Assembly: GCF_025699125.1 (NCBI RefSeq) | Contig: NZ_JAILWC010000004.1 | Span: 160,735 to 200,734, forward strand | Direction: 5' to 3' | Length of the DNA stretch: 40,000 nucleotides | From: Nitrosopumilus sp. | GTDB lineage: Archaea; Thermoproteota; Nitrososphaeria; Nitrososphaerales; Nitrosopumilaceae | Part shown: one piece after another, positions 15,285 through 37,425 of the stretch | Position numbering within the stretch: the stretch's first letter is position 1 | Layout of the letters: each line of letters begins with the position of its first letter | Program-made: the position numbers and the translations under genes | The notes under the pieces: generated by a model | Seen by the model: the letters and a program-made list of their open reading frames with translations, nothing else | What the model was told of the DNA's origin: nothing | The model's database searches: none

Positions 15285-15290
15285 TAGAAT

Positions 15291-19041: not shown

Positions 19042-19087
19042 ACAACCATACGTTGTTCTTATGTACTTTGATTTTCTTTAATTTATC

Positions 19088-19309: not shown

Positions 19310-19400
19310 GTGTTTGTATTGCGTTTCATCATATGATGATAAGCTAGAGTAAGCTAAGTAGCTTACCGCACTCTATCTGCAACTAGTTCTAAATAGAATT

Positions 19401-19550
19401 ATGAAAACACCACAAAACTCAAACTGGGATAGAATGGTTCATGCCCCTTTCAAAAAGGTCGTAAAGTTTGACCTCATCTGCATGGGAATCGGCGCAGTAA
19501 TTGGAATGGGTGCTGGAGCATATCTTGTTGCTAGTGGTTTGTTAGGCTAG
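19401..19550 (+). CDS. possible 49-aa single-TM micro-protein
   Basis: Hand translation gives MKTPQNSNWDRMVHAPFKKVVKFDLICMGIGAVIGMGAGAYLVASGLLG, with a Gly-rich C-terminal TM helix. It is below the track cutoff. Confidence 0.3.
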   Translation: MKTPQNSNWDRMVHAPFKKVVKFDLICMGIGAVIGMGAGAYLVASGLLG

Positions 19551-19690
19551 CAACAAAATTCCTTTTTTATGATTAACATGAATCACACCTTAGAAAATGA
19601 GAAGGGGTAATTGTCACGAAATTCATGCCCATGACTCTACGGGATACAACACCATTTCGAAGATAAAGATAGGCGCAGATAGGATGACAC

Positions 19691-21838: not shown

Positions 21839-21874
21839 GATTATATTGCCAAAAACAGATGTATAACATCTTAC

Positions 21875-21888
21875 TTTACAAATGTAAA
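21875..21888. promoter_or_regulatory. palindromic operator candidate TTTACA-AA-TGTAAA in the copA / regulator divergent spacer
   Basis: The palindrome has perfect 6-bp arms (an outer C/G pair extends it to ctttacaaatgtaaag, 21874-21889). It lies exactly 37 bp from the copA start (21838) and 37 bp from the regulator start (21925). The same half-sites recur at 22559-22572 and 22613-22626. Confidence 0.5.
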
Positions 21889-21924
21889 GAGAACTCTAAA
21901 TACAAAATAGGGAATTGACATTGT

Positions 21925-22383
21925 ATGGGTTACGAGTTAGATCAACTAGATACATCAATTATCACTTCTCTAATGGAGGATGGAAGAAAATCCTTTCGTG
22001 CAATTTCTAGAGAATTGAAAATCAGTACGCCAACCATAAAGGCAAGATACGAACGACTAGTAAAAATAGGCTTGATAAAATCTGTGAGGCCTGAAATTGA
22101 TATAACAAAAATATCCAAGTCAAACAAAAAATCTCTTTCGGAGGATTTGCTTAATTCACTTAAAACAAACAAAAAACACTTTCATGTTAAAATTGATAAT
22201 CTTCAAGTAAAAATGAAATGCGATTTCTGTGAGGGTCCAATCAATGGAAGACCCAAATCACTAAAGTTTGCAGACATTGAACGATTTTTTTGCTGTACAT
22301 CTTGTAGAAATGATTACAAGGGAAAGTATGGTGGAAGAATACAGTCTCTAATAGAACAGTATAAAGAAAATAAAAAAAAATAG
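21925..22383 (+). CDS. Lrp/AsnC-type HTH regulator fused to a C-terminal TRASH metal-binding domain (CopR/CopT-like copper-responsive regulator)
   Basis: 152 aa. The N-terminal LDQLDTSIITSLMEDGRKSFRAISRELKISTPTIKARYERLVKIGLI is an HTH_AsnC pattern. The C-terminal CDFCEGPI...FFCCTSCRNDY is a TRASH pattern. The gene is divergent from copA. Confidence 0.75.
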   Translation: MGYELDQLDTSIITSLMEDGRKSFRAISRELKISTPTIKARYERLVKIGLIKSVRPEIDITKISKSNKKSLSEDLLNSLKTNKKHFHVKIDNLQVKMKCDFCEGPINGRPKSLKFADIERFFCCTSCRNDYKGKYGGRIQSLIEQYKENKKK

Positions 22384-22558
22384 TGATAAGAAAATTTTTT
22401 CCTTCTTGAACAGATTTTCTCATGATATAATATATTATTGGATATGTGCGTTGTTGTTTCTATTCGTAAATTCAATGAACGCTGTTCATAATTTGCATGG
22501 ATTGTCATATGTAATTTCATGAATTTGCATTAGATTGTTGGATAGATATTCGCTAGAC

Positions 22559-22626
22559 TTTACAATTGTAAATATTGGTTATGATGGATGTAGTGCAATT
22601 CAGATTTTTCATTTTACAATTGTAAA
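22559..22626. promoter_or_regulatory. two copies of palindrome TTTACAATTGTAAA upstream of the DoxX gene
   Basis: Perfect 14-bp palindromes lie at 22559-22572 and 22613-22626, which is 92 and 38 bp upstream of the ATG at 22664. Confidence 0.45.
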
Positions 22627-22663
22627 GTATACTGTTGATTTATCCTGCAGCATATGTAAATAC

Positions 22664-23089
22664 ATGATAAATTCACAACAACAAAAACAACAACTAAACA
22701 AAATCCAAGAATTAACCTATTGGGGAATCCGAGCCTCAGTTGGAGCAATCTTTTTTGTATATGGTATGCAAAAATTCGACCCGATATGGAAACAACATCT
22801 AATCAACTTTGGATTTCCTCCAGAACTGCAAATTCCTATTGCGTTAGCTGAAACCATAGGAGGAATATTCCTAATAGTTGGTTTTATGACAAGAATTACT
22901 GGTGCTGTATTTAGCATAATTCTGCTAGATGCAATATTTCACATCAGATGGGAAAATGGATTCTTCATAGCCCAAGGTGGATGGGATTATGATCTTGCAC
23001 TACTGACAATGATGCTATTTGTTATTGTAACAGGTACAGGAAAAATTTCCATCAATTCAAAATTGAAGATTCCAAAAATTCTTCAATAA
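22664..23089 (+). CDS. DoxX-family membrane protein
   Basis: GIRASVGAIFFVYGMQKF, LAETIGGIFLIVGFMTRITGAVFSIILLDAI and four TM helices fit DoxX. The track ORF starts at TTG 22535, but that leader holds the palindromes, so ATG 22664 (MINSQQQ) is the likely start. Confidence 0.7.
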   Translation: MINSQQQKQQLNKIQELTYWGIRASVGAIFFVYGMQKFDPIWKQHLINFGFPPELQIPIALAETIGGIFLIVGFMTRITGAVFSIILLDAIFHIRWENGFFIAQGGWDYDLALLTMMLFVIVTGTGKISINSKLKIPKILQ

Positions 23090-23114
23090 TTTTTTTTATT
23101 TAATTTGAACTCGA

Positions 23115-23366
23115 TCATGGATGCATCATCTTATCATCCATCATGTTTCCGCGTATAATTTCTTGCATCTGCCCCATTACCTCTGGGTTTTCTGACATGT
23201 GGCCCAACATCTGCAATATTATGTTTGGATCGTTAATCATTTCCATCATCATTTCCTGCATAAAATCATGATTTTTTCTCATCATAATTCCCATATCCTC
23301 TGCATGTTGAGTATTTTGCATCCATGTTCTTATTGCCTCTTGATCTTGTGTTGTTGATTCCATCAT
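23115..23366 (-). CDS. methionine/histidine-rich small soluble protein (candidate Cu(I)-binding protein)
   Basis: 83 aa with 19 Met (counted) plus 4 His, in clusters MMxxM, MQEMMMEM and MMDDKMMH. There is no signal peptide or TM helix. It lies inside the metal island. Confidence 0.6.
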   Translation of the reverse strand: MMESTTQDQEAIRTWMQNTQHAEDMGIMMRKNHDFMQEMMMEMINDPNIILQMLGHMSENPEVMGQMQEIIRGNMMDDKMMHP

Positions 23367-23624
23367 TTGTTGTCTGAATTGGGGGATCTCACATCATTGT
23401 AATCTTACAAAAAGAGATCTACTATGGGTGTTCTCAATAGCATTGTGTGGTGCAGTATTGCGCCAAGCCTGTATTTTGTTGGATTGACACATGCAAGTGC
23501 ATCTGATACCTGCTCTTATTGCAAATGGAGAAGTGGTCTTTTCAGTTTTACTTACAGTGATGCCAGATATTAAAGATGAAATTCCCAATATTGGCCCCAT
23601 ATGAAAATTAGATTTTGCATATAA

Positions 23625-24554
23625 CTATCGTTCAATTTCTACAAAAATATACTCTTTGTTGGAATTTGGCAGAATTTTCATAATTTCGTGTTCAATCACA
23701 TCAGTTACCACCTCAATTTTATCCGTATCCAACCCATCAATCAAATTTACTTCAATTCCAACTATGATGATAGTAGGACTAAGATGCATTGTTTTCATAG
23801 TGACAACTTTGTGGACTTCAGGTATTGCAGCAACAACACCTATAATCTGTTTTCTTTGTTCTGGGGAAATTGATTCTCCTATTAGCAGACCTCTGTTTTC
23901 TTTGGCCAAGAAAAAGGCAAACGACATCAGCAGTATTCCAATAATAATTGAGCTTATAGAATCATATACAGTATTTCCAGTTATGTCTGTAAGAAATATT
24001 CCTACAGCTGCAATTCCAATTCCTAACAATGCAGCAGTGTCTTCCACCACTACAGTTAGAATTGAAGTGTCCTTGCTATTTTTAAATTCATTATACAAAG
24101 TTGAAGGTCTTGTCTTTTCACCTCGTTCTTTAATTGGTTTTTTAAATTGAATTAGTGCAATTCTTAACGCATTTGCCTCAAAACCAAATGCAATTGCAAG
24201 TACAATGTAATTTATTACAGGATTTTCAAAATTATGCCCCTCGCCCAACAAAGATGAGAATCCCTGTTCAAGGGACAATATGCCAGATATTCCAAAGATC
24301 ATGGTAGCTACAACAAATGACCAGAAAAATTGGGACTTTCCAAAGCCAAACTGATGTAAATCAGTAGCAGGTTTTTTGCTTATTTTGATACCCAGCAACA
24401 ACAGAATTTGATTAACTGTGTCTGAAGCAGAGTGATAAGATTCTGCCCACATTGAAGCACTACCCGTCATTGCAGCTGCAATAAACTTTGTAACTGCAAT
24501 TCCCAGATTTCCAAAAAGTGCTGCGTAAACTGCGTTGGTAGATCCAGATGCCAA
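23625..24554 (-). CDS. cation diffusion facilitator (CDF) family metal efflux transporter
   Basis: 309 aa, six TM helices, with ESYHSASDTVNQILLLLG (TM2 metal site) and VVEDTAALLGIG (TM5). The C-terminal cytoplasmic domain contains VHKVVTMKTMHLSP. TTG start. Confidence 0.8.
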   Translation of the reverse strand: MASGSTNAVYAALFGNLGIAVTKFIAAAMTGSASMWAESYHSASDTVNQILLLLGIKISKKPATDLHQFGFGKSQFFWSFVVATMIFGISGILSLEQGFSSLLGEGHNFENPVINYIVLAIAFGFEANALRIALIQFKKPIKERGEKTRPSTLYNEFKNSKDTSILTVVVEDTAALLGIGIAAVGIFLTDITGNTVYDSISSIIIGILLMSFAFFLAKENRGLLIGESISPEQRKQIIGVVAAIPEVHKVVTMKTMHLSPTIIIVGIEVNLIDGLDTDKIEVVTDVIEHEIMKILPNSNKEYIFVEIER

Positions 24555-25387: not shown

Positions 25388-25566
25388 TGAAAGTCATACC
25401 CCTTCAGTCTATTTAATTTGATGCATACTGTAAGTTAAACTAGGAATGATTCACAGACGCATAGTCGTTTTGCAAATATTGGTTTGAATCCACGGGGACT
25501 CTACCACCATTTTGGGGTGGAAATGGACGCAGATAAGTATCAAATAAGAAAAAATGTATTGTAAAT

Positions 25567-25743: not shown

Positions 25744-25915
25744 GTCACAATGTATTTTTTATCATATATTACATTGTCTTATTGGAGATTCTACTCCCAT
25801 TTTGGGGATAAATGTCAGTTACTTGAGCGAGATTTACAAGAATAATTCGGCACTCTAATTCTCTGAAGAATAACTGTCTCTTTGATTCAAGTCTCTAATT
25901 TCAAGTGTTAACGAG

Positions 25916-25936
25916 TTTATCGACAAACAGTAAAAA
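25916..25936. repeat. left copy of 21-nt direct repeat (target-site duplication) TTTATCGACAAACAGTAAAAA
   Basis: It is identical to 37314-37334 and immediately abuts the outer end of the left TIR. Confidence 0.8.
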
Positions 25937-25986
25937 CAGTATCCCCCCGAAATACGCGTAAATTCCTGACGGTTGTCGTAATGCTT
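25937..25986 (+). repeat. left terminal inverted repeat
   Basis: The sequence is cagtatccccccgaaatacgcgtaaattcctgacggttgtcgtaatgctt. Compared with the reverse complement of 37261-37311, the outer 12 nt and inner 14 nt are identical, with about 40 of 51 aligned positions matching overall. Confidence 0.8.
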
Positions 25987-26013
25987 TTCTGTTAAGATCA
26001 AAAATAACAATTA

Positions 26014-26835
26014 TTGTCTGAATCACAAAAGCCTAAAGAATTCAAGTATGTATTTCATGGCAGAGTTTTACCAGAAAGAGCAGATGTCGAAATCACAGGA
26101 GGTCCAATTATCGGAATACAAACTAGCACTGGGTATGATCTTAGAATATCTTTTGAAATTCGAAAATCTTTGATTTCAATACATGTAACATCTTTTGGAG
26201 AAATTACTGATTTTGCAGAAGTTAGAAATTTCTTACTGGATTTTGTTCGATTACATACAGATTCGTACGGATACATTAAGGGATATGCATATGATGCAGA
26301 AATCACATCTGTAAGTGGCGAGAACAATCAACCTTACATAATTTTTGGAGTAGGGATAAAGGAATTGACCGATGAAGAATCCAAACGCGCGTTTCAAAAA
26401 ATAGATAAAATTATCTTATTAGCAATACAAGACAAATATCGATTCATTTATGGCACATTAGCAAATCTTCGACTATCTATCAAATATCCTTCTGATACAG
26501 GAACCTTTTGTTATAGAGCCGTTGAAAGCATTAGACAATATTTTGGAGTTAAAGGCGATTCCAGAGATGCAAGAAAAAAAGCTTGGGAAAAATTAAATGC
26601 AGAGCTTAATGTTGATAAAAGTTGGACAGCTAGAATAGCTGATTTTGCATTAGATCCGAGACATGGAAAACAAAAATCAATCACACATGATGAACGGGTA
26701 GAGATAATGCAAAAAACTTGGGTGATAGTGGATAGGTTTTTGATTTATGCTCAAAATAATGAACAAACTTTAGACACTGCCTCGTTTCCATTACTAAAAT
26801 ACAATGACACAAAAGGGACAAAAGAATCACTATAA
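26014..26835 (+). CDS. casposon ORF, unknown function (273 aa)
   Basis: TTG start 28 bp inside the left TIR, with no in-frame ATG for about 230 codons. It overlaps the cas1 start by 32 nt. I recognise no motif. Confidence 0.55.
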   Translation: MSESQKPKEFKYVFHGRVLPERADVEITGGPIIGIQTSTGYDLRISFEIRKSLISIHVTSFGEITDFAEVRNFLLDFVRLHTDSYGYIKGYAYDAEITSVSGENNQPYIIFGVGIKELTDEESKRAFQKIDKIILLAIQDKYRFIYGTLANLRLSIKYPSDTGTFCYRAVESIRQYFGVKGDSRDARKKAWEKLNAELNVDKSWTARIADFALDPRHGKQKSITHDERVEIMQKTWVIVDRFLIYAQNNEQTLDTASFPLLKYNDTKGTKESL

Positions 26836-27805
26836 CGTAAAACTACTACGAGGCTACGGAGTATCCATATCTCTCAAAGACTCTAAAATTATTCTAAAAA
26901 ATGGAAGGCATGTTATCACAGGAGAACAAGAATCCGAAGAATGGTTTGTCAACAACATGCCATATGAAAAAATAATACTTTCTGGAAAAGGATATGTTAG
27001 TACGGAAGCATTATCATTATTATCTCAAAAGAACAGAAACATAATCCTAATTGACACATACGGTAAACCAATAATCTTCTGCAACTCTATGATGGATTCT
27101 CTAACGGCTACAAAATATCGAATGGCACAGTACGATACGTTCAGAGATCCTGAGAAATGTGAGTATCTGCGTAAGCAGATTATACAAAGTAAAAAAGAAT
27201 CTCAACTAAAACTGTTAAAACTAATTGGTAGTGATGTAACTTCTCTACCTGAAAAAGAACATCTTGCAAGTAAAGTCTATTTCAAAGAATTTGCCAAAGT
27301 CATTCCTGAAAGATATGGATTTAATTCAAGAAATCAATCGTTTATCCGAACATCAAAAAACAATGCAACTGATATCATCAATGCGTTACTAAACTATGGT
27401 TATTCTGTTTTGGCAGGGGAAATCTCAAAGTTTGTCTGCGGGTTTGGATTAGATCCTTATTTTGGATTTATGCACAAATCTCATACGGGATTTCAACCGT
27501 TGGTTTATGATTTGATAGAACCATTTCGATGGCTAGTTGATTATACTGTATTCAAAATTGCAAACCATCCAAATTATCGTTATAGAATCAAACTCAAGGA
27601 ATTTGTTCATACAAGGGAGGGGAATGTCGTGATGGATTCATCTTTGATCAAGAGGTTTTTGGAGATGTTAGAAAGACAGTTCCAACAGGAAAGAAAGTAT
27701 GATTTTAGGCATGGAAAGAAGACTGAATCGGGTTTGAAATCAGTTCAAGAAATTACTGTTGCAAAGATTATGATTCAAAAATTATCTGATTTTTGTAGCC
27801 AATAA
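26804..27805 (+). CDS. cas1: Cas1-family integrase (casposase)
   Basis: 333 aa with an N-terminal beta-rich domain (LLRGYGVSISLKDSKIILKNG). The catalytic alpha-domain motifs are ATDIINALLNYGYSVLAGEI and GFMHKSHTGFQPLVYDLIEPFRWLVD, carrying the conserved His and acidic residues. Confidence 0.88.
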   Translation: MTQKGQKNHYNVKLLRGYGVSISLKDSKIILKNGRHVITGEQESEEWFVNNMPYEKIILSGKGYVSTEALSLLSQKNRNIILIDTYGKPIIFCNSMMDSLTATKYRMAQYDTFRDPEKCEYLRKQIIQSKKESQLKLLKLIGSDVTSLPEKEHLASKVYFKEFAKVIPERYGFNSRNQSFIRTSKNNATDIINALLNYGYSVLAGEISKFVCGFGLDPYFGFMHKSHTGFQPLVYDLIEPFRWLVDYTVFKIANHPNYRYRIKLKEFVHTREGNVVMDSSLIKRFLEMLERQFQQERKYDFRHGKKTESGLKSVQEITVAKIMIQKLSDFCSQ

Positions 27806-27809
27806 TTTT

Positions 27810-28265
27810 TTATTTTTCTAAAACTTCTTCAACTGTAGAGCACTTACATTTAGAAACAAAACTATCTTCTTGAATAGCTTTTTTTAGATTTCCATCTGCA
27901 GTTACAAGGATTGCATTAGATTGTAATGTTACACCAACAAATTCAGTGTCACATTTTTTAACTCCTTCAAAATTATTTGAAATACCCTCTATTATACTCG
28001 TTTTCAATGGATCACTCATCACTCCTAAAAATCTAGGAATTATATGATTGTCTAATATCTCGTTATTGTATTTCTGTTCCACTTTTTTAGGTAATGCAAA
28101 AAACTTTTGTTGAATTTTCAAATTCATAAACTGTTTGTCTTTGTTTGAGAAAAATCCATAAAGAAATATTTTTTCTGTATCTGCATTTTTAGATTTATTG
28201 TTTGATGCTTTTTTTCCATGAATTGCATTTAAAACAACATTTTCATCAATTACATAATCAGTCAT
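27810..28265 (-). CDS. PIN-like domain protein (putative nuclease partner of the ATPase)
   Basis: The N-terminal MTDYVIDENVVLNA resembles the PIN first strand plus Asp. The C-terminal CDTEFVGVTLQSNAILVTADGNLKKAI resembles the PIN D..ia.A....a.LvT.D motif. The ATG at 28265 overlaps the ATPase stop by 8 nt (ATGACTGA). The track start is TTG at 28298, and a further in-frame ATG lies at 28280. Confidence 0.5.
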   Translation of the reverse strand: MTDYVIDENVVLNAIHGKKASNNKSKNADTEKIFLYGFFSNKDKQFMNLKIQQKFFALPKKVEQKYNNEILDNHIIPRFLGVMSDPLKTSIIEGISNNFEGVKKCDTEFVGVTLQSNAILVTADGNLKKAIQEDSFVSKCKCSTVEEVLEK

Positions 28266-29520
28266 TGGGTTCACCCACATATTTAGAAAACATTTCAAAA
28301 TCAGTTTCCCAAAATTCTTTTAATCCATTTTTGATTTGTCCATGTTCATTAATAGGTAAAGTCTCTATTTTTGAAACCCCTGTTTTTTCATCTTGATAAA
28401 ATGAATTTACTGTGACTCTAGTGGGGTTAATTTGCTGTTTGCTTGCAATTTTTGCTAAAAATGGATAGAGCATATGCTCACTATGAGTAGTAAAAATAAG
28501 CTGTTTATTGTCTTTGTTTGAAATTTCTATCATTAATTCTACAAGTTTTGATTGAGCTTTGGGATGCAAATGGATTTCAGGCTCATCTATGGCAATTACA
28601 GAACCTGAAGGACTTCCTACCAGTATTGTAAGTAACAAGATTACTTGATTAGGACCAGTTCCTTCGTTTGCAATAGCATTAGCAAATCCATTCTTTACAA
28701 ATTCCAAGGTCACTCCTTGCAGTTCAGATGAAAGAAGGTCTACATTTCTAGTACGAATCGTTTTACCCGTTAATTGATGGATAAATGAACTGATTTTACC
28801 TAGCAAATCGGTATCTTTGCTTAATTTGCTTAAAGTTACATCCATTAAAGATTCTGGACTACTTGAAAGTAAATCATCAGGTGTTCGTACCAATTTAACA
28901 CCATATTTTGTTGCAGAACGAAAAAATGGAATATAGAAAAACTCATCTAACAATTGTTCGGTAAATTCCCCATTTGCAAATATATTATTGATTCTAGTAC
29001 TTGTTTCACTCCCCTCCTTAGATGCTATTCGTGGGTGTAGTCCATTTATGGAACACTCTAACGTGGACTTTTCCTCTTGTCCTCTTCTAGAATTAATACG
29101 TGTTTTCTGATTTCGATAACTAAATTCAAAATCGTAGTGATCTACATTTACACCTAGATACACATCAGAAATACCCTTTTCCCCTTCTGTAACATAATAC
29201 CCGAAATCAGCTTTTGTTTTTCCTTCATAATCAATTCCGGTGGCGATTGTTTTTATCCCTTCTACCCCAATTCGTATTTTTCGTGTAAGGTCACCAAATG
29301 AGACAACATCTTTAAAATTTCCATAATCATAAGAGTCTGTTGAATATGTTAGATTATTGGTTCCTTGTTGTTTCAATGATGTTTTTAAAATTAAAAGAGC
29401 TTGAAGAATAGATGATTTTCCACTGCTGTTAGATCCTATGAGAATATTGAATTGACTTAATGGTATTTCCCAATTAACATGTGATTTAAAATTCTCTAGA
29501 CGTATTTTTTCAAGATACAC
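28258..29520 (-). CDS. ABC/SMC-like AAA_15/AAA_21-family ATPase
   Basis: 420 aa, GTG start. The N-terminus YLEKIRLENFKSHVNWEIPLSQFNILIGSNSSGKSSILQAL carries Walker A. The C-terminus VIAIDEPEIHLHPKAQSKLVELM...LIFTTHSEHML carries Walker B, D-loop and H-loop. Confidence 0.8.
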   Translation of the reverse strand: MYLEKIRLENFKSHVNWEIPLSQFNILIGSNSSGKSSILQALLILKTSLKQQGTNNLTYSTDSYDYGNFKDVVSFGDLTRKIRIGVEGIKTIATGIDYEGKTKADFGYYVTEGEKGISDVYLGVNVDHYDFEFSYRNQKTRINSRRGQEEKSTLECSINGLHPRIASKEGSETSTRINNIFANGEFTEQLLDEFFYIPFFRSATKYGVKLVRTPDDLLSSSPESLMDVTLSKLSKDTDLLGKISSFIHQLTGKTIRTRNVDLLSSELQGVTLEFVKNGFANAIANEGTGPNQVILLLTILVGSPSGSVIAIDEPEIHLHPKAQSKLVELMIEISNKDNKQLIFTTHSEHMLYPFLAKIASKQQINPTRVTVNSFYQDEKTGVSKIETLPINEHGQIKNGLKEFWETDFEMFSKYVGEPND

Positions 29521-29546
29521 TATTTACAATCGATCTGATAAAGAAT

Positions 29547-31445
29547 TTAAAGATCACTTTCAGGTTCATATACAAATTCATCATATCCTGACCAAATAAT
29601 CTCATTCTTTGAGATAATATCTCCTATAATATCAATAGGAATAGGCACAGAATCACACCATTTCTTGTCTTTTAATGATTCCAAATCGGATAACCAATGT
29701 CGCTTTCTATCTGAGTTTAGTCCAATTTTCTTGTCATACGTTTCAATCTTTCCAATATCATCAATTTTGTCATATACAATTCCTCCTTTGATATGGGTGG
29801 TTCTTGTAGTTGCAACAGTAATGTAGAGATTTCCTTCCTCATCAATCTTTGTTGCCAAATGTTCAATCTCTATCTTTCTTTCAGTGTCATATCCTATTCC
29901 ACGATTCTTCCATTTGCCATTGATATGATAGAATCCGTTAGAAAGAAAATACGTGTCAAAGCCATACTTGTCAAGTTTCATCCCCCCTAGTTTTTTACTA
30001 TCTAGATTTGGAATCTTTTTTCTGCATGCAATAGAGTCAGTTGCAAATGCCACTACATCTCTTTCAATGTTATTGTCTCTGACAAACTTGTACAGTTGTG
30101 CCCTTGCAAAACCTGTGATGTAAGATGCAATAATTGGATTAAACAAATTGCCCATAACACCATTTGTTCGCTGAGCCATCTTACCATAGACGGAATTTAG
30201 AATGATCTTGATTGCTCTCTCTAGCGAATTTCCTTCTTTTTGTAATTCCATTCTTTTCTCATATTGGGAATTTACAAAGTCTCTAAATGGATATGTACAG
30301 TTTTCATTTGCAATGAATTGCTGTGATTCTATTATTTTGTATTTTATTCTAGAGTCACCAATTACTGCCTTTAGTTCCTCTAGTGTGACAAATGTCTCAA
30401 ACTCTCCTGATGGGTAGATGATTCTATTATTTTTTGTTCTAAATGGAAATGGCGAAATTTTAACAGAATCAGAAACATATGCTCTGATGTGAAAGAATCC
30501 TAATGATGCTTTGGGGTTTATTCTAGTGGAATGAATCCATTTGCCATCAGTAATGTCTGGAAGAAATGTTAACGCATATGGATACGCTGAATTGATATCA
30601 TAGATGTAGCACTCTCCGATGAATCCGCGTTGAATTAGCTCAAATCGCCCTCCATAGAACGATTTCCACGCCAAATCCTGTATTTCATAGGGAATATCAG
30701 TAAACAATGCGATTTCCACGTCATTGAATATCAATACTTTTTCTGCCAGATATCCCGAACTTATCCAGTTTGCCGTGTAAAACTGGTATGCGTTAAAAAA
30801 AGTATCTAGCCAGTAATCTGCCAGTTCTTGAGTTAAAACACAATCCAAAAGACAATAGTCTCGGATCTTTTGCTTGTTTCTCATAAAGTATCGCAGTGAA
30901 AACTTTTTTCTCTTTTCTTTTGTTTCAAGATACTCTTGATCAAGAGTCTTTTTGATATGCTCAGAATATGCAACCTCGAGTCGTTTGTTATCATAGTATT
31001 GTGCAATATCATAGCATGAAATGGAATGCTTGTCTTTTCTAATTGTTAGTTGCTTTTTTGGAATGTATCTTATTTGATATCCGTTGTATTGAAAATCTAA
31101 TCTTTTACTAGTCTTGTAGGTTTTAAGAATGTCTTTGGGCAATAATTTTAAAATGCATTCAGCATCATATTGTAGATTGTAAAAAAATATCCAATACCCC
31201 TCATGCTTTAGAAGAAGTTTTGCAATGTTATCAAATGTTATGTCTGGATATTCTAGTTTAACACCATTTGACAACATGAAAAGAAAAATGTTTCCTTTAA
31301 CAGTTTCAGTGTCAGCCCCCAAAGTTTTTCTTCGTTGTGAGATGTTTGGATTTCTGTTCTGCTTTCTAGTTTTGATAAATGTCAGGTCTTTGGCATTTGA
31401 TTTCGGAGTGTAAACTTGCAATGTCATGGGCTTGGATTCCTCCAT
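29547..31445 (-). CDS. polB: family B DNA polymerase, protein-primed type
   Basis: 632 aa. The motifs are ExoI GADTET, ExoII FFYNLQYDAE, ExoIII YCLLDCVL, Pol A YIYDINSAYPYAL, Pol B KIILNSVYGKMAQ and Pol C VVAFATDSIA. Confidence 0.9.
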   Translation of the reverse strand: MEESKPMTLQVYTPKSNAKDLTFIKTRKQNRNPNISQRRKTLGADTETVKGNIFLFMLSNGVKLEYPDITFDNIAKLLLKHEGYWIFFYNLQYDAECILKLLPKDILKTYKTSKRLDFQYNGYQIRYIPKKQLTIRKDKHSISCYDIAQYYDNKRLEVAYSEHIKKTLDQEYLETKEKRKKFSLRYFMRNKQKIRDYCLLDCVLTQELADYWLDTFFNAYQFYTANWISSGYLAEKVLIFNDVEIALFTDIPYEIQDLAWKSFYGGRFELIQRGFIGECYIYDINSAYPYALTFLPDITDGKWIHSTRINPKASLGFFHIRAYVSDSVKISPFPFRTKNNRIIYPSGEFETFVTLEELKAVIGDSRIKYKIIESQQFIANENCTYPFRDFVNSQYEKRMELQKEGNSLERAIKIILNSVYGKMAQRTNGVMGNLFNPIIASYITGFARAQLYKFVRDNNIERDVVAFATDSIACRKKIPNLDSKKLGGMKLDKYGFDTYFLSNGFYHINGKWKNRGIGYDTERKIEIEHLATKIDEEGNLYITVATTRTTHIKGGIVYDKIDDIGKIETYDKKIGLNSDRKRHWLSDLESLKDKKWCDSVPIPIDIIGDIISKNEIIWSGYDEFVYEPESDL

Positions 31446-31801
31446 ATGACATCTGAGATGTCTGATTCAAGTCCTCGCCTTAATTTTGAGAATTCGCTTC
31501 TTATTTCTCTAAGTGATTTTCCAGTATCAAAATTCTTTTGTATAGATCTAAAGTAATTCCAGCTTCGTCGCATCTTTTGACTGCGATTCTTGTTTGCATC
31601 TGATCTTTTCTTTTGTCTTTCCTCTTCTTTTTGGTTTTTAGATTTTAGCAGTTTTTGAATCTGGTTCTGAATGTTCATGCGTTCGCCCATCAACTGTCTG
31701 AGAAATTTCTTGGTTTGAGCCGTCTGTCGAAATACCTGTAATTGCTCAATTTCCTTCTTGATAACTTCAATTTCTGAGCGCAATCGGTCGATTTTTCGCA
31801 T
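31424..31801 (-). CDS. highly basic coiled-coil protein upstream of and overlapping polB (hypothetical)
   Basis: 125 aa, rich in K/R/Q, with heptad-like EIEVIKKEIEQLQVF. It overlaps the polB start by 22 nt. Confidence 0.55.
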   Translation of the reverse strand: MRKIDRLRSEIEVIKKEIEQLQVFRQTAQTKKFLRQLMGERMNIQNQIQKLLKSKNQKEEERQKKRSDANKNRSQKMRRSWNYFRSIQKNFDTGKSLREIRSEFSKLRRGLESDISDVIWRNPSP

Positions 31802-31885
31802 ATCATAGGCATAAAACCATAGATTATCAGTTGGTAAGTAGATTTATGATGTTATGAGACATATGTCAAAAAAGGTAAAAATGAC

Positions 31886-32656
31886 ATGGTAAATGAAAAG
31901 AATCCTAAGTCTGTTCTTAAAAATCGCCTTTCACAAGAGTTATTTTTTGAGATATTCATGATGCCTGCATCAGGCTACAAACTGGCTCAAATTGTTCAGA
32001 ATACGACAAAGACCCCCAACACAAAATCTGTTTATCGAGTTTTGGCAAAATTGATAGAACACGGATACATCACATATAAAGACAAAAAATATCATCACAA
32101 TCCAAAAACACTTACTGATGAACTTGTAAAATATTTGAATTCGAAGGATGTTGTATTGGATAAGGCTGATATGAATTATCTTTTATTTCTGGTAACCAAT
32201 GCTGAATTTTTTAATCATTTTATAGTTGATCTTAATATTCATGTAAAACCAAAAAACTACCAAAATCTATTACAGGAAATCACAAACATGGTTGGCATGT
32301 GTGCTGCAATATTGTTGTATGGAATAAATACATCAACAACAAAGCCCATTCCAGTAAGAATTTCGCTTGAGAAAATCAATGAAAGGATAATGAAATTAAA
32401 AAAACATGTTAATGATGAAATACCTAAAAAAGTACGTGGTTCAAAATCACAACGAAAATTACAACAAAAACAATTAGAAAAATTGTATCATCATCTTCTG
32501 TCTTATGTTTTTTTATTTGTTGTACAAGAAAAAATACCTAAAAAAGCATTGATAAAATTTGCAACTCTTTGGAATCAATATGGAGGATTTAAAATTGGAG
32601 TCAAAGTTGGAAAGATTGATTTTAAAAATAATCCATTTAGAAAACACTTTGAATAA
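31886..32656 (+). CDS. winged-helix DNA-binding protein (hypothetical regulator)
   Basis: 256 aa. MPASGYKLAQIVQNTTKTPNTKSVYRVLAKLIEHGYITYKD fits a PadR/MarR-like wHTH. It is divergent from the polB operon. Confidence 0.55.
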   Translation: MVNEKNPKSVLKNRLSQELFFEIFMMPASGYKLAQIVQNTTKTPNTKSVYRVLAKLIEHGYITYKDKKYHHNPKTLTDELVKYLNSKDVVLDKADMNYLLFLVTNAEFFNHFIVDLNIHVKPKNYQNLLQEITNMVGMCAAILLYGINTSTTKPIPVRISLEKINERIMKLKKHVNDEIPKKVRGSKSQRKLQQKQLEKLYHHLLSYVFLFVVQEKIPKKALIKFATLWNQYGGFKIGVKVGKIDFKNNPFRKHFE

Positions 32657-32914
32657 AATATTTTTAAAAATATGTCTACTATAATCATTAATGTAATTTT
32701 AATTCAAATGGTAAAACTATAAAGAAAAATTAATGTTTTTACATAATTATATCATTACAATTCCATAATGAGTTACAGTTTAGGTTTAGTTTCATTGTAA
32801 CAATTCAGTAATGATTTTACTGATTTTGTGAATAACTAGCCATAATATTGTGAATTATTACAGAATCAGGCATAATATTCCATTTTGAATTCCAATTATT
32901 TATTCGTAGAAAAA

Positions 32915-32930
32915 ATTCCACATGTGGAAT
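32915..32930. repeat. perfect 16-bp palindrome ATTCCACATGTGGAAT
   Basis: Read directly from the sequence. It is flanked by two copies of aattccaattat (32888-32899 and 33003-33014). Confidence 0.7.
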
Positions 32931-33181
32931 AATTCCTAATGGAACTGTTACAGTTTCAAATTGTGTTTGTATTATCTTTTTTAATTCTAATTCGAATTGT
33001 AAAATTCCAATTATGATATTAATTCGGATAAAGCCCGTTCGAGTTATATCTTCGAATTTGCACTTTTCACGCCTAGTTAAACGGCAAAAGCATAGGAATT
33101 GACCTAATTCGAATCATCAAGTGAACCTAGTTTGTCGAATCGTAACCTTTTTGAATCGCCGTTGACATCAATGAACTTTTT

Positions 33182-33445
33182 CAGTAATTGGAGGGTATTT
33201 TTGAAAACCTGTTCATTTTGATACAGTAAAATTTACGAAAACAAGTTTACAGAAACCCCAGTAAAATTATGAATAAAATCATGAAAACAAGGAAAAATTT
33301 ACTGTTTTATGCCTAGTAAAATTCAGTAAAATCATAATTCTATGTATGAAAAATAACACCTTATCGGAGTAAAGTTTACTGATTATTTAGTAAAGTTTTC
33401 AAATGTAAAGTGGTGGACAAAACTATTCAATCAGGAAAGTAAAAT
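33182..33445. repeat. iteron array: at least 10 copies of (C/T/G/A)AGTAAA(A/G)T in both orientations
   Basis: Full 9-mer copies lie at 33224, 33259, 33314, 33324, 33367, 33388 and 33437. Shorter or variant copies lie at 33182 (cagtaat), 33297 (inverted, cagtaaat) and 33375 (inverted, cagtaaa). A related hairpin tcagtaa-N5-ttactga lies at 32805-32823. The array ends at the start codon of the TIR-like gene. Confidence 0.65.
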
Positions 33446-34790
33446 GGACAATGAATTACCATACAAAATTTTGAAAATAATGCGAGATCTTTACAATATG
33501 GACCCTATGAGTTACATGGGTATGGATTACTTTGAACCAGAACTTAAACTTCCTGAAGAAGTAATTCAAGGGGCGTTAATCTATCTGAAAGAAAAAGACT
33601 GGATAAGATCTTTCAAAGATGTTCATGGTGAATGGGTTCAACGAATCAACGCTAATGGAATGGATGAATTACTAAACTATGAAAAAGAACATGCTGATGA
33701 TAATGAGCCATTAGAATTTGATGTGTCTCATGAAGATCATACTGGTAAAATCAAGGTCTTTATCAGCCACAAATTTGTAAAATCAGACCAAAAATTAGCA
33801 AAAGCCTTAGAACACAATCTTAATGAAAATAACATCTATGGTTACTTGGCAGAACGAAGAAAAGAATATGATATTGTATTTGGAGAGAAAATAAAAAATG
33901 AAATTAAATCATCAGACTATCTAGTAGCCATTATTACTAAAAACTCTCATTTTGCACCATCAGTACATCAAGAAATAGGATACGCTATGGGAATTGGAGT
34001 TCCTGTCAGAGTAATGGCTGAAGAAAAAGAAGCAAAAGGAGTATTAGTAGAAGGCAAAGACATTGAAATTTTTACAAGATATGATTTTGAAAAATATCTA
34101 GGAAATATAATAAAAAATATTCAAAAAAATGGAATTAGAAAAAAACTATCTCAAAAAGAAAAAGATGATCTAATTACACATGTGTATCGTCCTTGTTTTA
34201 ACCAATTAATGAATATATATCCAAAACGAGATTTCATAACAGAAATTCCAGATAATGCGTGGAACAAACTTGAACCATTTTGGCAATTAAAATGTGAGCC
34301 TGAAATATCAAAACTTTTTCAGGAATACGAAAAAGAGAGAAATACTTGGCATCTAATGTGGATAGACTTTCAAAATAAATGCCAATCCAAACGAAAAGAA
34401 TTAGGAGAAATGCTTAGACCTATTTTTGAAAAATATCATTTGTTCAATTTGGATGGAACTCTTTCTTTTGGAGGATATGATCTTAATCCCGAAGAATGGA
34501 TTCATAACTGTCAGGATGTTCTGTTTAACCCTCAAATTCAAAATCGATTGGAGTTGTACGTAACATTAAAAGACTTTGCACTAAAGAAATGGGGCGAAAG
34601 ATATTCAAAATCATATGACAAATGGCATCAAAACAATCCGTTGATTTTTACTGAAATCTTAAAAATGATTCCCTATTTAATAGATAAACTAGATGCAGAA
34701 TTCCCATATAATAAAATCAATGATCAGAGAAACATTCTAAAAGAAAAAATCGAGATATTGACACTTGCTCTAGAAGAAAAATTGAGATGA
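33444..34790 (+). CDS. wHTH + TIR-like (DUF1863 / nucleoside 2-deoxyribosyltransferase-like fold) domain protein with unknown C-terminal helical domain
   Basis: 448 aa. Residues ~103-215 read KVFISHKFVKSDQKLAKALEHNLNENNIYGYLAERR...SSDYLVAIITKNSHFAPSVHQEIGYAMGIGVPV, matching the TIR-like pattern (FISH start, S.wv.qEig.A with a conserved Glu). The N-terminal ~80 aa looks like a wHTH. Confidence 0.6.
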   Translation: MDNELPYKILKIMRDLYNMDPMSYMGMDYFEPELKLPEEVIQGALIYLKEKDWIRSFKDVHGEWVQRINANGMDELLNYEKEHADDNEPLEFDVSHEDHTGKIKVFISHKFVKSDQKLAKALEHNLNENNIYGYLAERRKEYDIVFGEKIKNEIKSSDYLVAIITKNSHFAPSVHQEIGYAMGIGVPVRVMAEEKEAKGVLVEGKDIEIFTRYDFEKYLGNIIKNIQKNGIRKKLSQKEKDDLITHVYRPCFNQLMNIYPKRDFITEIPDNAWNKLEPFWQLKCEPEISKLFQEYEKERNTWHLMWIDFQNKCQSKRKELGEMLRPIFEKYHLFNLDGTLSFGGYDLNPEEWIHNCQDVLFNPQIQNRLELYVTLKDFALKKWGERYSKSYDKWHQNNPLIFTEILKMIPYLIDKLDAEFPYNKINDQRNILKEKIEILTLALEEKLR

Positions 34791-34791
34791 T

Positions 34792-35709
34792 ATGATGAAA
34801 ATTCCCAAAATTCCTTCGTCAGTTGAGAATTGGTCTATAGAAAAAATAGATGAGTTGATTCAATATGTGGGGATTGAATCAGATACTTTTGATTTTAAAA
34901 AAGAACCAAATCAATTAGAAGAACATATCTGTGCAATGGCAAATACCAAGGGAGGACATCTAGTATTGGGGATTGAACAAATTGATAGTGAAGATGGAAA
35001 GCAAATTGTAAAATTTGAAAAACGTGGGTTTAAACATGGTTTTGAAGATAACATTAAAAATCAAATCAGTAACAGTGTTCTTCTGATAGAACCAATACCT
35101 GATGTGGATATTATTCCAGTTCATGAAAAAGATAACAAAAAATTCTATATCGTAATCCAAATTCAAAATAATTTTTCAAATAAACCTTATTTTGTACGTT
35201 CAACTGACCAGTGTTTTGTAAGAATTCATAACTCAAAAATACGTGCAAATCGTTCAATTATTTTTAATTTATTTGGAACATCAATCGAACAGAGGAAAAA
35301 TCTTGAAAGTTTACGTTCTGCAAGTAGTATGGTGGAAGAATCTTTTAGACATGTTATTAGCAGAATTTATTTTGTTTCGCCTGAGTCAAACATGAAAATT
35401 TCTCTTCTAGAATTATCGTATTTACGAACTACTGCTGTTTCTTGTGATGCATTTCTAAAAGAAAGAGACTTGTGGGGCGAACATACTGGACAAGGCAGTT
35501 ACACTCATGGAATTAATTCTTTATTGCATGATTTAGAATTTATGAACACATACATCAAATCATACAACGATTCACATGATACTGATGAAAGACGTGATCT
35601 GAAAGGACAACTGTCGTCATACAGTTTGGGTAGCACGTTTGAGACACAAACATTAGAAATGTTTGATAAAATAATCTGTTCCGTAGATGTATTTCTTTCA
35701 AAAATATGA
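34792..35709 (+). CDS. Schlafen/AlbA_2 (divergent AAA_4) domain protein
   Basis: 305 aa. ESDTFDFKKEPNQLEEHICAMANTKGGHLVLGIEQIDSEDGKQIV matches the AlbA_2 signature (E..eFK....l...icAfaNt.GG.l.lGv). The start lies 1 nt after the upstream stop. Confidence 0.6.
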   Translation: MMKIPKIPSSVENWSIEKIDELIQYVGIESDTFDFKKEPNQLEEHICAMANTKGGHLVLGIEQIDSEDGKQIVKFEKRGFKHGFEDNIKNQISNSVLLIEPIPDVDIIPVHEKDNKKFYIVIQIQNNFSNKPYFVRSTDQCFVRIHNSKIRANRSIIFNLFGTSIEQRKNLESLRSASSMVEESFRHVISRIYFVSPESNMKISLLELSYLRTTAVSCDAFLKERDLWGEHTGQGSYTHGINSLLHDLEFMNTYIKSYNDSHDTDERRDLKGQLSSYSLGSTFETQTLEMFDKIICSVDVFLSKI

Positions 35710-35744
35710 TCATACCTTATTAGTATGAAAATAATTTGTTGGAT

Positions 35745-37262
35745 ATGAGTGATTTTAACTCAAATCGGATTTTTACAATTTTATTTTCACTAATATTGTC
35801 ATTATTAATTGCAAGTCAAATCACTGCAATAGTTTCGGTATATGAAAATATATTAAAACTAATTATTGATGACTATTCAGAAGAGTTATTAAAATCACTC
35901 ATTTTTAATCTTGGAAAAAATATCTTTTTTACATTAATTTTTGCCCTGTTGATTTTTGTTGGAATTAAAAAATTTCTAAAATTCAAACAAAAAGAATTCG
36001 GAACTGTGGATGAATTCAAACAAATCTTTCGTGTTATGATTACCAAGAAGCGTCTTTTCTTCTCATTTCTTCTAGCATCTATTATGCTTTGTTTAGGAAT
36101 TGCATCTTCTTATTATGCGACTGATATTTTGTCCACATTAATTAATGAAGGCGGACTTTCAAACCCCATTTCGAATGAACAGAAAAAGTTGTTAACTGAT
36201 TTAGCATTAGAACTTAGTTTTGGAGTCATTTTCATAATATGGGGCACATCTACAATTATTCGGATTTTTCAAACTGCATCTTCTTCTCTTCACGATAGCA
36301 AGATATCTGCAATAACTACAACCATTACTACAAAATACAGTGAGAAAAAAATCTCAAAACCATCTAGAATAAAAAATCAATTAATTCAAAATCCGATATG
36401 GAAAATTTTTCTATATGTCATAATTGTGCCGTGTATTTTTTTACTTTTAATTTTTTACAGTTCAGATATTCTTAAATCAATTAATTCCAATTTCGAAACA
36501 CCCATACTGCCTTTTGGACCATATGTTATCTATTTGATGATGATTTTCATTTCGATAGTTAATAACAGATATGTAAGCACATATAAAAAAACCAATGTTT
36601 CAAAACATTTTGAAATTTTAGGTTCAAAATACATAATTAAAGAAAATCGTATATTGGAAAAAATTTATCTTGTGACATTTATTCTCATGATTATTTCAGT
36701 AATCATCTTTGTAGCATACATTGTGATAAATCCTCAAAGCGATGACATAAATGCAGAACAATTGGATCCTATTGCTGTATTCTTTTTTTCATTATTCTTT
36801 GGGTTTATGCTCATGTTTACAATCACATCTGTAAAAATAAAAGTGGATCGTGATAAAGATGATTTTTTACTATGGATATCTGGGGGGTTTTTCGAAGAAG
36901 GATTAAAAAATAAAGATAAAATTAAAGAGTATTTGGATTATGGTTTACAATCATACAATACTTTTTTTAAAATACATCACAAGCAAAAAATTATTGATAT
37001 TCAACATATCATTATTGAGATTGTTTCTAAAAAAGAATCAGAAAAAATACAAATTATTCAAAAACTAATAGCGTCATTTAAATCCAATAACAATTATGAT
37101 GCACTGAATGAAATATGCAAACTAATGGGCGTGAAATCACATAATATCATTACATCTAACAAATTTGTTTTAAAAATAAAAGATTGGGGAACTTTCATCA
37201 TCTCGGTTTTGATATTAACATTAACAATTATGTGGTATTGGAAAGAAGGATTATTTTCTTAA
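35745..37262 (+). CDS. polytopic membrane protein with soluble C-terminal region (hypothetical)
   Basis: About 505 aa with at least 8 hydrophobic helices. The track start is TTG at 35736 and an ATG lies at 35745. The stop codon (37260-37262) overlaps the first 2 nt of the right TIR. Confidence 0.6.
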   Translation: MSDFNSNRIFTILFSLILSLLIASQITAIVSVYENILKLIIDDYSEELLKSLIFNLGKNIFFTLIFALLIFVGIKKFLKFKQKEFGTVDEFKQIFRVMITKKRLFFSFLLASIMLCLGIASSYYATDILSTLINEGGLSNPISNEQKKLLTDLALELSFGVIFIIWGTSTIIRIFQTASSSLHDSKISAITTTITTKYSEKKISKPSRIKNQLIQNPIWKIFLYVIIVPCIFLLLIFYSSDILKSINSNFETPILPFGPYVIYLMMIFISIVNNRYVSTYKKTNVSKHFEILGSKYIIKENRILEKIYLVTFILMIISVIIFVAYIVINPQSDDINAEQLDPIAVFFFSLFFGFMLMFTITSVKIKVDRDKDDFLLWISGGFFEEGLKNKDKIKEYLDYGLQSYNTFFKIHHKQKIIDIQHIIIEIVSKKESEKIQIIQKLIASFKSNNNYDALNEICKLMGVKSHNIITSNKFVLKIKDWGTFIISVLILTLTIMWYWKEGLFS

Positions 37263-37311
37263 GCATTACGACAAAGCGTCATAAAATCACGAGTAAAGTG
37301 GGGGGATACTG
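37261..37311 (-). repeat. right terminal inverted repeat
   Basis: The sequence is aagcattacgacaaagcgtcataaaatcacgagtaaagtgggggggatactg, and its reverse complement aligns with 25937-25986. Confidence 0.8.
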
Positions 37312-37313
37312 TT

Positions 37314-37334
37314 TTTATCGACAAACAGTAAAAA
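37314..37334. repeat. right copy of 21-nt direct repeat (target-site duplication)
   Basis: It is identical to 25916-25936. The 5 T at 37312-37316 could belong to either the TIR or the TSD. Confidence 0.8.
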
Positions 37335-37425
37335 GGGAACGCCCCCTCTTTGTGAGTAAAATTGTGCTAGGAACTAGGTAAATTTTGAGAGTCTGTTTAG
37401 TTTAAAATTATCTTGAGTAAATTAA

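Follow-up and report, generated by a model that had tools for sequence, protein, structure and literature searches.

A probable family-1 casposon in a Nitrosopumilus genome and its ef-2-like landing site

To what kind of genetic unit does a lone Cas1 gene belong when it lies near a DNA polymerase gene and between inverted repeats, and how did that unit come to rest at its present site? The question is raised by a stretch of 40,000 nucleotides (nt) from a Nitrosopumilus metagenome-assembled genome (MAG; contig NZ_JAILWC010000004.1), the whole of which is called the window throughout. The original prediction, made from the letters of this DNA, saw in it an intact casposon of the thaumarchaeal type, and that assignment has held: the Cas1 is a close homologue of a proven family-1 casposase, and the junctions match those of the casposon NitAR1-C1. 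We conclude that positions 25932-37316 very probably constitute a structurally complete family-1 (thaumarchaeal) casposon of 11,385 bp, so called because a solo Cas1, a family B DNA polymerase (PolB) of the protein-primed type, terminal inverted repeats (TIRs) and a target-site duplication were all verified. Family-1 casposons are already catalogued and, judging from the Cas1 homologues, close relatives are abundant; this copy is an added member of the family, and our literature search found no account of it. The more interesting lead is the landing site rather than the element itself.

Casposase, polymerase and ends

The Cas1 homologue, in whose translation the motifs quoted by the prediction are present, aligns end to end with the casposase of Ca. 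N. koreensis AR1 at 76% identity and is 84% identical to that of N. ureiphilus. For the AR1 protein, a family-1 casposase, both the activity in integration and its specificity are known from measurements (PMC6614799, PMC8464041), and the residues mutated in the AR1 study (D110, R113, K117, K184, Y197 and Y234) are all kept in the window protein. Its best match in the PDB is the M. mazei casposase 6OPM (1.3e-28), which ranks above any CRISPR Cas1. The best 120 homologues are all 289-351 aa long, every one with a named source comes from the Nitrosopumilales, and the exact sequence is present at NCBI as a protein of a Nitrosopumilus sp. MAG, on a contig of 211,692 bp that encodes MCV0411256.1 / WP_297474269.1. 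Judged from its sequence, the protein is a compact Cas1 of the thaumarchaeal Cas1 clade, without a fused helix-turn-helix (HTH) or zinc domain. By homology to the assayed AR1 enzyme, it is predicted to integrate TIR-ended DNA in a site-specific manner.

All six motifs that had been quoted for the polymerase are likewise found in its translation, and the protein matches phrog_11768 (DNA polymerase) at 2.1e-60 over nearly its full length. Its identity to five other casposon PolBs is 62, 50, 51, 46 and 45%. Four of the six casposon PolBs that were aligned match PF03175 (DNA_pol_B_2; best 1.2e-28), the organellar and viral protein-primed type, and the window polymerase is assigned to this type by orthology because its own sequence misses the Pfam filter. 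Protein priming is predicted for it on this footing. The small basic protein encoded just ahead of polB is 50% identical to its counterpart in N. ureiphilus and 32-46% identical to the pre-polB proteins of AR1 and of three further casposon loci (L005, L006 and L007). A terminal-protein role has been proposed for the gene at this position (Krupovic et al. 2014, PMC4046053), and the 125-aa protein is a candidate for that role.

The block had been described as flanked by a perfect 21-nt direct repeat, and the 21-mer TTTATCGACAAACAGTAAAAA does occur in exactly two copies, at 25916-25936 and 37314-37334; a third copy is absent from the window even at 3 mismatches (0.01 expected by chance). The repeat is perfect, as claimed, and what needs revision is its equation with the duplication, which, by homology to AR1, is most likely 13 bp and not 21, the element most likely occupying 25932-37316. 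Wang et al. 2021 found that the apparent 22-bp repeat of AR1 holds a true duplication of 13 bp. On the corresponding boundaries, the apparent 21-nt repeat (3 + 13 + 5 nt) would appear in the window because the A5/T5 termini of the element repeat the T3/A5 flanks of the target; the TT gap at 37312-13 between the right TIR and the repeat would also vanish, because the boundaries are those set by AR1 homology.

A genome scan anchored on Cas1 yielded 6 loci, which served for the comparison of junctions and are too few for statistics. At the left junction the window reads ...AACGAG TTT ATCGACAAACAGT AAAAA CAGTATCCCCCC, and AR1 (locus L002) reads ...GAAGAG TTT ATTGATAAAGAGT AAAAA TAGAATCCCCCC...; the right junctions read ...GGGGGGATACTGTTTTT ATCGACAAACAGT AAAAA GGGAACGCCCCC in the window and ...GGGGGGATTCTATTTTT ATTGATAAAGAGT AAAAA GGCAGTCCCCCC... 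in AR1. The window junctions align base for base with those of AR1, N. ureiphilus, L005 and L007. According to Wang et al. 2021, integration depends on the leader TTT (chiefly T-1), on A1, A11 and T13 of the target and on the spacer-side AAA, all of which are present at the window target. The change of T3 to C seen here is tolerated in vitro in the AR1 work.

The inverted repeats, predicted to share identical outer 12 and inner 14 nt, were confirmed in both respects, with arms that prove slightly longer than had been proposed (Table 1). The sequences CAGTATCCCCCC and TTGTCGTAATGCTT each occur once at either end in inverted orientation. When the left arm is aligned, with gaps, to the right arm in reverse complement, 45 of 56 columns are identical, the outer 17 nt (AAAAACAGTATCCCCCC) and the inner 14-mer TTGTCGTAATGCTT being perfect; a repeat-finding program delimits the arms as 25931-25974 and 37274-37317. 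The likeness is well above chance, with a local alignment score of 33 against a null of 7.9 +/- 1.8 and a null maximum of 18 (5000 random window pairs).

Table 1. Coordinates of the casposon, its genes and its landing site in the window
Feature	Position	Strand	Remarks
Leader, 16 nt	25903-25918	+	AAGTGTTAACGAGTTT; identical to the ef-2 3' end (..GVNEF..) of some Nitrosopumilaceae lineages
Left target-site duplication, most likely 13 bp	25919-25931	+	ATCGACAAACAGT; homologous to mapped AR1 ATTGATAAAGAGT
Left terminal inverted repeat	25932-25986	+	AAAAACAGTATCCCCCC ... TTGTCGTAATGCTT; architecture as in the N. ureiphilus casposon
273-aa ORF, overlaps cas1 start	26014-26835	+	Large unannotated protein family
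Casposase, family-1 Cas1 homologue, 333 aa, no extra HTH	26804-27805	+	Pfam Cas_Cas1 2.4e-43
162-aa ATPase partner	27810-28298	-	Overlaps end of ATPase gene, operon-like
ABC/OLD-type AAA_15/AAA_21 ATPase without Toprim domain, slot 1	28258-29520	-	Pfam AAA_15 4.7e-35, AAA_21 1.5e-24
Protein-primed-type family B DNA polymerase, 632 aa	29547-31445	-	Intact Exo I-III and Pol A, B and C motifs
125-aa basic protein, overlaps polB start, directly upstream	31424-31801	-	Conserved in family-1 casposons
256-aa putative winged-helix (PadR-like) protein	31886-32656	+	Pfam PadR 0.0039
Non-coding gap, 787 nt, 27% GC	32657-33443	.	No ORF, blastx or Rfam match
448-aa TIR-domain protein, slot 2	33444-34790	+	Pfam TIR_2 2e-7; PADLOC ThsB 1.2e-5
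305-aa Schlafen/AlbA_2 protein, slot 2	34792-35709	+	Pfam SLFN_AlbA_2 2.4e-14
508-aa hydrophobic, probably multi-pass membrane protein, slot 2	35736-37262	+	No family matches
Right terminal inverted repeat	37261-37316	-	
Right target-site duplication, most likely 13 bp	37317-37329	+	ATCGACAAACAGT
Left-TIR-like end of element 'X'	37330-37400	+	AAAAAGGGAACGCCCCCTCTTTGTGAGTAAAATTGTGCTAGG..; outside the casposon, part of the landing site

Between its ends the element has a backbone that runs, from left to right, as an open reading frame (ORF), cas1, a first cargo slot, polB and the 125-aa gene (both on the minus strand), a gene for a winged HTH protein and a second cargo slot. Its GC content is 31.2%, against 33.1% in the rest of the window. 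This backbone is syntenic with that of the casposon of N. ureiphilus (L003, CP026995.1), from which the cargo differs and which is the closest relative that we have seen (Cas1 84%, PolB 62% and 125-aa protein 50% identical). The two share the order of the backbone, the architecture of the inverted repeats, including TTGTCGTAATGCTT, and a site away from ef-2 that has a AAAAAGGGAAAGCCCC flank and a leader resembling ef-2 in part. They differ in that the N. ureiphilus element carries HEPN_AbiV and a TPR protein in slot 1, has TPR proteins among its cargo, lies in the opposite orientation relative to its leader and has arms that agree at 55 of 56 positions. Two cargo slots around a conserved backbone have been swapped between close relatives, which accords with the idea that casposons act as vehicles for defence genes.

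Likeness to NitAR1-C1 (Ca. N. koreensis AR1; Krupovic 2014, Beguin 2019, Wang 2021) extends beyond the casposase to a polymerase of the protein-primed type that is about 50% identical, a conserved pre-polB gene, an AlbA_2 gene near the right end (after polB in AR1), ends of the form AAAAA-N6-CCCCCC, a target of the form TTT-A..GA..AA.GAGT-AAAAA with the same essential positions, an apparent repeat of 21-22 nt around a 13-bp duplication, and a TIR-like remnant just past the right duplication. The differences are equally clear. NitAR1-C1 is inserted at a real ef-2 3' end, whereas the window element is not; its arms are perfect over 64 nt, against 45 of 56 columns here; the window polB is inverted relative to cas1; the AR1 element measures ~8.2 kb, against ~11.4 kb here, where the cargo comprises an ATPase pair, a TIR-domain protein and a membrane protein; and the 'ruler' ATAA of the AR1 target reads ACAA. 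The natural ends and target of the window element depart from the sole family-1 system studied in vitro at defined points (T to C at position 3, ATAA to ACAA, the 16-nt leader and the imperfect arms), and they therefore offer a ready-made test of which determinants matter.

Landing site and leader-target pads

Family-1 casposons typically lie at the 3' end of ef-2 (PMC6563490, PMC4046053), and insertions at non-ef-2 sites have already been documented (PMC6563490). The window element is not inserted at ef-2; it occupies a copy of an ef-2-3'-like leader and target beside ordinary chromosomal DNA. There is no ef-2 gene in the window, and the reading frame that gives ..SVNEFIDKQ* over the left repeat meets stops just upstream, only ~16 nt being ef-2-like. 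Some 530 nt to the left is a 276-aa gene, a conserved chromosomal gene of Nitrosopumilus with variable synteny; that the left flank might be an island between ef-2 and the landing site is disfavoured because this adjacent gene belongs to the conserved chromosome.

The leader itself resembles the target. Within it, AAGTGTTAACGAGT (25903-25916) has the same first A and final GAGT as the 13-nt target, and the 13-mer AGTGTTAACGAGT, which is the leader minus its first A, matches the AR1 duplication ATTGATAAAGAGT at 10 of 13 positions. The leader may be a pseudo-target. Two fragments resembling tRNA 3' ends lie in the ~527-nt non-coding left flank, at ~25480-25510 (GGTTTGAATCCACGGGGACTCTACCA..) and ~25785-25805 (..CTACTCCCATTTTGGGG), and comparable fragments lie directly upstream of metagenomic sites described below (L014, L019 and L043). 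These fragments may be att scars that other integrative elements have left.

On the other side, the DNA that follows the right duplication begins with a sequence resembling a left TIR, which has counterparts at many metagenomic sites and, as flank or inverted repeat, in L003, L005, L007 and L008, and continues to position 40000 with ORFans of 240, 307 and 96 aa. A second casposon-like element, here called X, probably has its left part in this right flank and continues past the end of the window. The window element would therefore be a tandem or secondary, leader-proximal insertion, because its right flank is another casposon-like left end. A similar arrangement is seen at L005 and L007, where C-terminal fragments of PolB (L005 8699-9112, L007 7413-7868) lie just past the spacer-side end of complete casposons; these fragments are decayed older casposons at the same target and suggest that it has been re-used in a polarised, leader-proximal fashion. 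Precedents exist in NitNF5-C1/C2 of N. adriaticus and in the family-2 tandems of Methanosarcina (Krupovic 2016, 2019), in which a target is re-used and the new element comes to lie between the leader and the older element. In those tandems the leader is a real target gene, either ef-2 or a tRNA gene, whereas here it is 16 nt of ef-2-like sequence.

With one copy of the target, the empty site would read AAGTGTTAACGAGTTT-ATCGACAAACAGT-AAAAAGGGAACG. The 240-aa ORFan has 3 matches in 5.8 billion proteins, and its sole close homologue is on a 1.5-kb Logan contig (L061; 80% nucleotide identity over 748 nt) with a TIR-like end adjoining. There, the TIR-like end abuts the target-like ATTGAGCCTCAGT and an apparent ef-2 end, with no casposon between. 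We rejected L061 as the orthologous empty site, its target and leader being different. A search through the 276-aa left-flank gene met differing synteny in N. maritimus and in two ENA contigs.

Is the combination of leader, target and TIR found elsewhere? Metagenome contigs were scanned with a degenerate pattern of leader, target and AAAAAGG (TGYYAACGAGTTYATCGACARASAGTAAAAAGG), in which leader positions -13 to -1 were fixed, and 42 contigs matched (L010-L051). We call each such match a pad. An ef-2 gene lies directly upstream in 2 of the 42 (L026 and L042), where it ends ...CCAGGTGTTAACGAGTTTATCGACAAAGAGTAA; the remaining pad contigs have unrelated AT-rich flanks. Among 37 distinct pad flanks, position -16 is A in 36, position -15 is a purine in 34 and position -14 is G in 35, with no conservation from -17 outward. 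Six extra sites in pad contigs, found by the target alone, all possess the leader. Every pad is followed by diverse sequence resembling a left TIR, beyond which fragments of the Cas1 N terminus or PolB genes are encoded in some contigs; other pads precede genes that, from their N-terminal sequences, look ordinarily chromosomal. Both copies of the duplication in the window share a private C at position 10, where all 42 metagenome pads have G. The unbiased, Cas1-anchored loci L006, L003 and L007 are at non-ef-2 sites as well, with full or partial leaders. In scans of viral contigs, the TIR 17-mer gave chance matches only and the leader-plus-target pattern gave none. A literature search found no account of such leader-target-TIR pads.

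Several contigs contain pads in series: L013 (at 360, 1318 and 2636), L019 (394 and 1610), L027 (40 and 1391) and L031 (105 and 869). These arrays have 2-3 pads each, spaced 0.76-1.3 kb apart, with about one gene per unit in L013 and L031, the two that were inspected. In L044, two pads stand head to head (820 reverse, 993). A 25-nt motif, CATCCTTCCCAAAAAATAATT, recurs together with its reverse complement at the edges of array units. A reading of the leader as the outer portion of a right inverted repeat that has diverged found no support: only this 25-nt inner motif is inverted, and the outer 90 nt are at the level of shuffled sequence. The 6-kb contig L037 has both a naive ef-2 end (GGTGAGTTT ATTGACAAAGAAT AG, without a TIR; ef-2 at 782-2989 on the minus strand) and, at 5732 in the opposite orientation, a separate pad whose leader, TGTTAACGAGTTT, is unlike the ef-2 of the same contig. 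In L012, neither cas1 nor a casposon-type PolB was found near the pad; an ORF at 2788-3882 (minus strand) with the motif YCDTDSVFV, downstream of the pad, seems to be part of another family B polymerase.

Candidate origins for the pads are transduction of the target with the element, ancient dispersed duplicates of ef-2 ends, and att cores of other integrative elements. We advance tentatively, as a proposal that is rather unlikely to hold, that the family-1 landing site is portable, a unit of 16-nt ef-2-derived leader and 13-nt target being carried along with the left ends of casposons into unrelated loci and genomes. If it were so, portable pads would give rise to new hot spots of integration and to leader-repeat-insert arrays built of single-gene units of ~1 kb. 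Arrays of this kind would stand naturally midway between site-specific transposition and polarised arrays of the CRISPR type, and the window element would be one occupant of a portable pad. Mobile pads would bear both on the spread of casposon targets and on the proposed casposon origin of the leader-repeat architecture of CRISPR.

Mobility and rival explanations

By homology to NitAR1-C1, insertion could have proceeded as follows. The casposase would bind the element by its 3'-OH ends (...CTGTTTTT-3' on both strands) and join them at staggered positions 13 bp apart in TTT|ATCGACAAACAGT|AAA, after which fill-in of the gaps would yield the 13-bp duplication; we infer this chemistry and the 13-bp stagger from the homology. 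The protein-primed PolB would copy the excised element from its inverted repeats, probably with the 125-aa protein acting as terminal protein. The insertion would have been made into a copy of the ef-2-3'-like leader and target beside the left end of the casposon-like X.

A recent insertion or continued mobility, as suggested by the original prediction, is plausible from the intact core ORFs, the perfect outer 17 nt and duplication, and the presence of a close relative at a different locus with different cargo. The intact ORFs and the perfect duplication on which that suggestion was based have stood; the absence of an exact empty site and the differences between the arms tell against it. These and a few other observations weigh against our interpretation of the locus as a whole. 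The arms differ at 11 of 56 columns, although they are near-perfect in AR1 (64/64), L007 (57/57) and N. ureiphilus (55/56), and such differences could mark a chimeric or ageing copy. The empty site that the prediction proposed to seek was not recovered in exact form, either among the 42 metagenome pads, none of which has the AAACAGT variant or the flanks of the window, or by way of the flank genes. The AR1 ruler ATAA is changed to ACAA in the target. The window PolB has, itself, no Pfam match, and the searches for an array and for ef-2 cover the 40-kb window, which is part of a contig of 211,692 bp.

Two readings would deny that the unit is a casposon. Pfam, NCBIfam and PADLOC all say Cas1, and database records say 'CRISPR-associated endonuclease Cas1', which might suggest the remnant of a CRISPR adaptation module, its array and its partner cas genes having been lost or being located beyond the window. 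This is effectively refuted. The prediction had noted neither a CRISPR array nor another cas gene in the 40 kb, and the array, Rfam and Pfam scans bear it out: no CRISPR-like array, Rfam match (CRISPR repeats included) or tRNA was detected in the window, the Pfam scan of 35 ORFs returned no second cas gene, and neither Pfam nor PADLOC gave a match to Cas2 or Cas4. Among the NCBIfam models the protein passes the generic TIGR00287 alone, the subtype-specific CRISPR Cas1 models falling far under their cut-offs; its identity to a proven casposase, and its position, together with a protein-primed PolB, between inverted repeats that a target-site duplication flanks, point the same way. It is also very improbable that the unit is another integrated element, such as a provirus or a His1/His2-type plasmid with a protein-primed PolB, and that its repeats are the attL and attR of a tyrosine or serine recombinase. 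The tRNA-3'-like fragments in the left flank are typical of att scars, and casposon polymerases of this type are related to those of archaeal viruses (PMC4046053); against this, the element yielded no gene for a recombinase, a capsid or packaging in Pfam, PHROG and NCBIfam searches, and the repeat is abutted by inverted repeats at junctions matching biochemically validated casposon junctions.

If the unit is a casposon, as we believe, it may still be one that no longer moves. An immobilised or chimeric copy, for example a recombinant of two tandem casposons with the left end of one and the right end and cargo of the other, retained as a defence island, would account for arm interiors that differ at 11 positions beside a perfect duplication when the arms of most relatives are near-identical, and would agree with the tandem, multi-insertion locus, with defence-like cargo that makes up more than half of the element and with the failure to recover an empty site. 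We hold it to be rather unlikely, given that no core ORF is truncated, that the catalytic motifs are intact and that there is no mismatch in the outer 17 nt, on which the casposase acts in vitro; the casposon at L005, which is inserted at ef-2, has similarly imperfect arms, and the AR1 enzyme accepts very diverse end sequences (PMC8464041). A further alternative concerns the landing site of a genuine casposon: the 16-nt leader and 13-nt target may have travelled with a casposon-like element by target-site transduction, in which case the mobile unit can include its landing pad. The unit of leader, target and left TIR beside 37 different flanks, the sharp end of conservation at -17, the leaders at the 6 sites for which none was required, the arrays of units in four contigs and the L037 pad with a leader unlike the naive ef-2 end of its genome all argue for such transduction. 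The family-2 casposon MetMaz-C1 (Gehlert et al. 2023) apparently took its own target site to a new locus and is an experimental precedent for excision and reinsertion by an element that may bring its target along, although, unlike in the window element, its PolB is RNA-primed, its duplication measures 14 bp and its targets are tRNA-like; transposition in vivo has been demonstrated for a family-2 element only. However, the search pattern itself dictated 13 of the 16 leader positions, no known mechanism cuts at -16, the model of a circular intermediate carries the duplication and not the leader, the pads may be ef-2 ends that were duplicated long ago or else the att cores of other elements, and the metagenome contigs are short. 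Weighing these points, we regard transduction as a possibility of some substance that is nonetheless improbable.

Cargo and other genes of the window

The prediction had described the element as mostly cargo, which is roughly right, at ~55% of its length with the 787-nt non-coding gap included. In slot 1, the ATPase matches NsnB of Menshen (1.1e-45) and AriA of PARIS (4.9e-39) among the PADLOC models. The sole family match of its 162-aa partner is phrog_28095 (function unknown), with none in Pfam, PADLOC or NCBIfam. Two motifs seen by eye, VIDENV near the N terminus and VTADGN near the C terminus, suggest a PIN-like fold for this partner; a single-sequence AlphaFold2 (AF2) model, with a pLDDT of 32, was unusable and was discarded. 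In slot 2, the AlbA_2 protein is 30% identical to the AlbA_2 protein of the AR1 casposon, and the membrane-protein gene extends to the right inverted repeat, at whose inner edge it has its stop codon.

Named defence systems were considered for this cargo and rejected. Menshen (NsnABC) is represented by an NsnB-like ATPase only, without a DUF262 protein and with a 162-aa partner that matches no model; for PARIS (AriAB), the AriA-like match has no adjacent Toprim or DUF4435 protein; and for Thoeris, there is a weak ThsB-like match of the TIR domain without ThsA, the neighbours being AlbA_2 and a membrane protein. Because none of the three is complete, the cargo is assigned to no named system, and we infer from the domain matches that it is defence-like and a member of none of them. 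Nuclease and defence cargo of family-1 casposons is already known in the form of OLD, HEPN and Cas4 (PMC6563490); the particular defence-like set found here has no published description for the family.

The ORF that overlaps the start of cas1 belongs to a family of ~250-aa proteins with 1280 representative clusters (50% identity) at E<=1e-3 and the conserved motifs PER, GYDVEITS, DTGFFCYRAIES and RHG. No relative was found in Pfam, PADLOC or the PDB, profile searches included, and no homologue was found in the other casposon loci compared; the ORF is probably cargo because it is not common to other family-1 casposons. The winged-helix protein shows weak conservation, with 24% identity over 144 aa (E 1e-6) to the product of L003 15735-16631 in the N. 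ureiphilus casposon.

In the non-coding gap upstream of the TIR-domain gene, 7 same-strand copies of AGTAAA[AG]T are clustered at 33225-33445, where 0.07 would be expected and where 2000 shuffles gave at most 3. This putative cluster is iteron- or operator-like. One copy of the motif also falls at 37292, inside the right inverted repeat, and another at 37355, inside the neighbouring TIR-like end. A scan with bacterial-type promoter and terminator models, which are not meaningful for archaea, gave no enrichment.

Elsewhere in the window, the minus strand of 4171-11809 has a cluster of six genes for subunits of the complex-I/Mrp type, whose order is not that of nuo: two antiporter-like proteins, a NuoH-like and a NuoK-like protein, a fused 30/49-kDa subunit with a weak match to NiFe-hydrogenase, and a Fer4-NuoB-like protein. 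The cluster looks like a group-4 hydrogenase or Mbx-like module, which would be unusual for Nitrosopumilus. Between this cluster and the casposon, 12698-24554 encodes TFIIB, a multicopper oxidase with a cupredoxin domain, a copper P-type ATPase with YHS, an AsnC/TRASH regulator, DoxX and a CDF transporter. These gene types are listed by Krupovic et al. 2019 as common in integrated elements of thaumarchaea, and the region may be a metal-resistance island.

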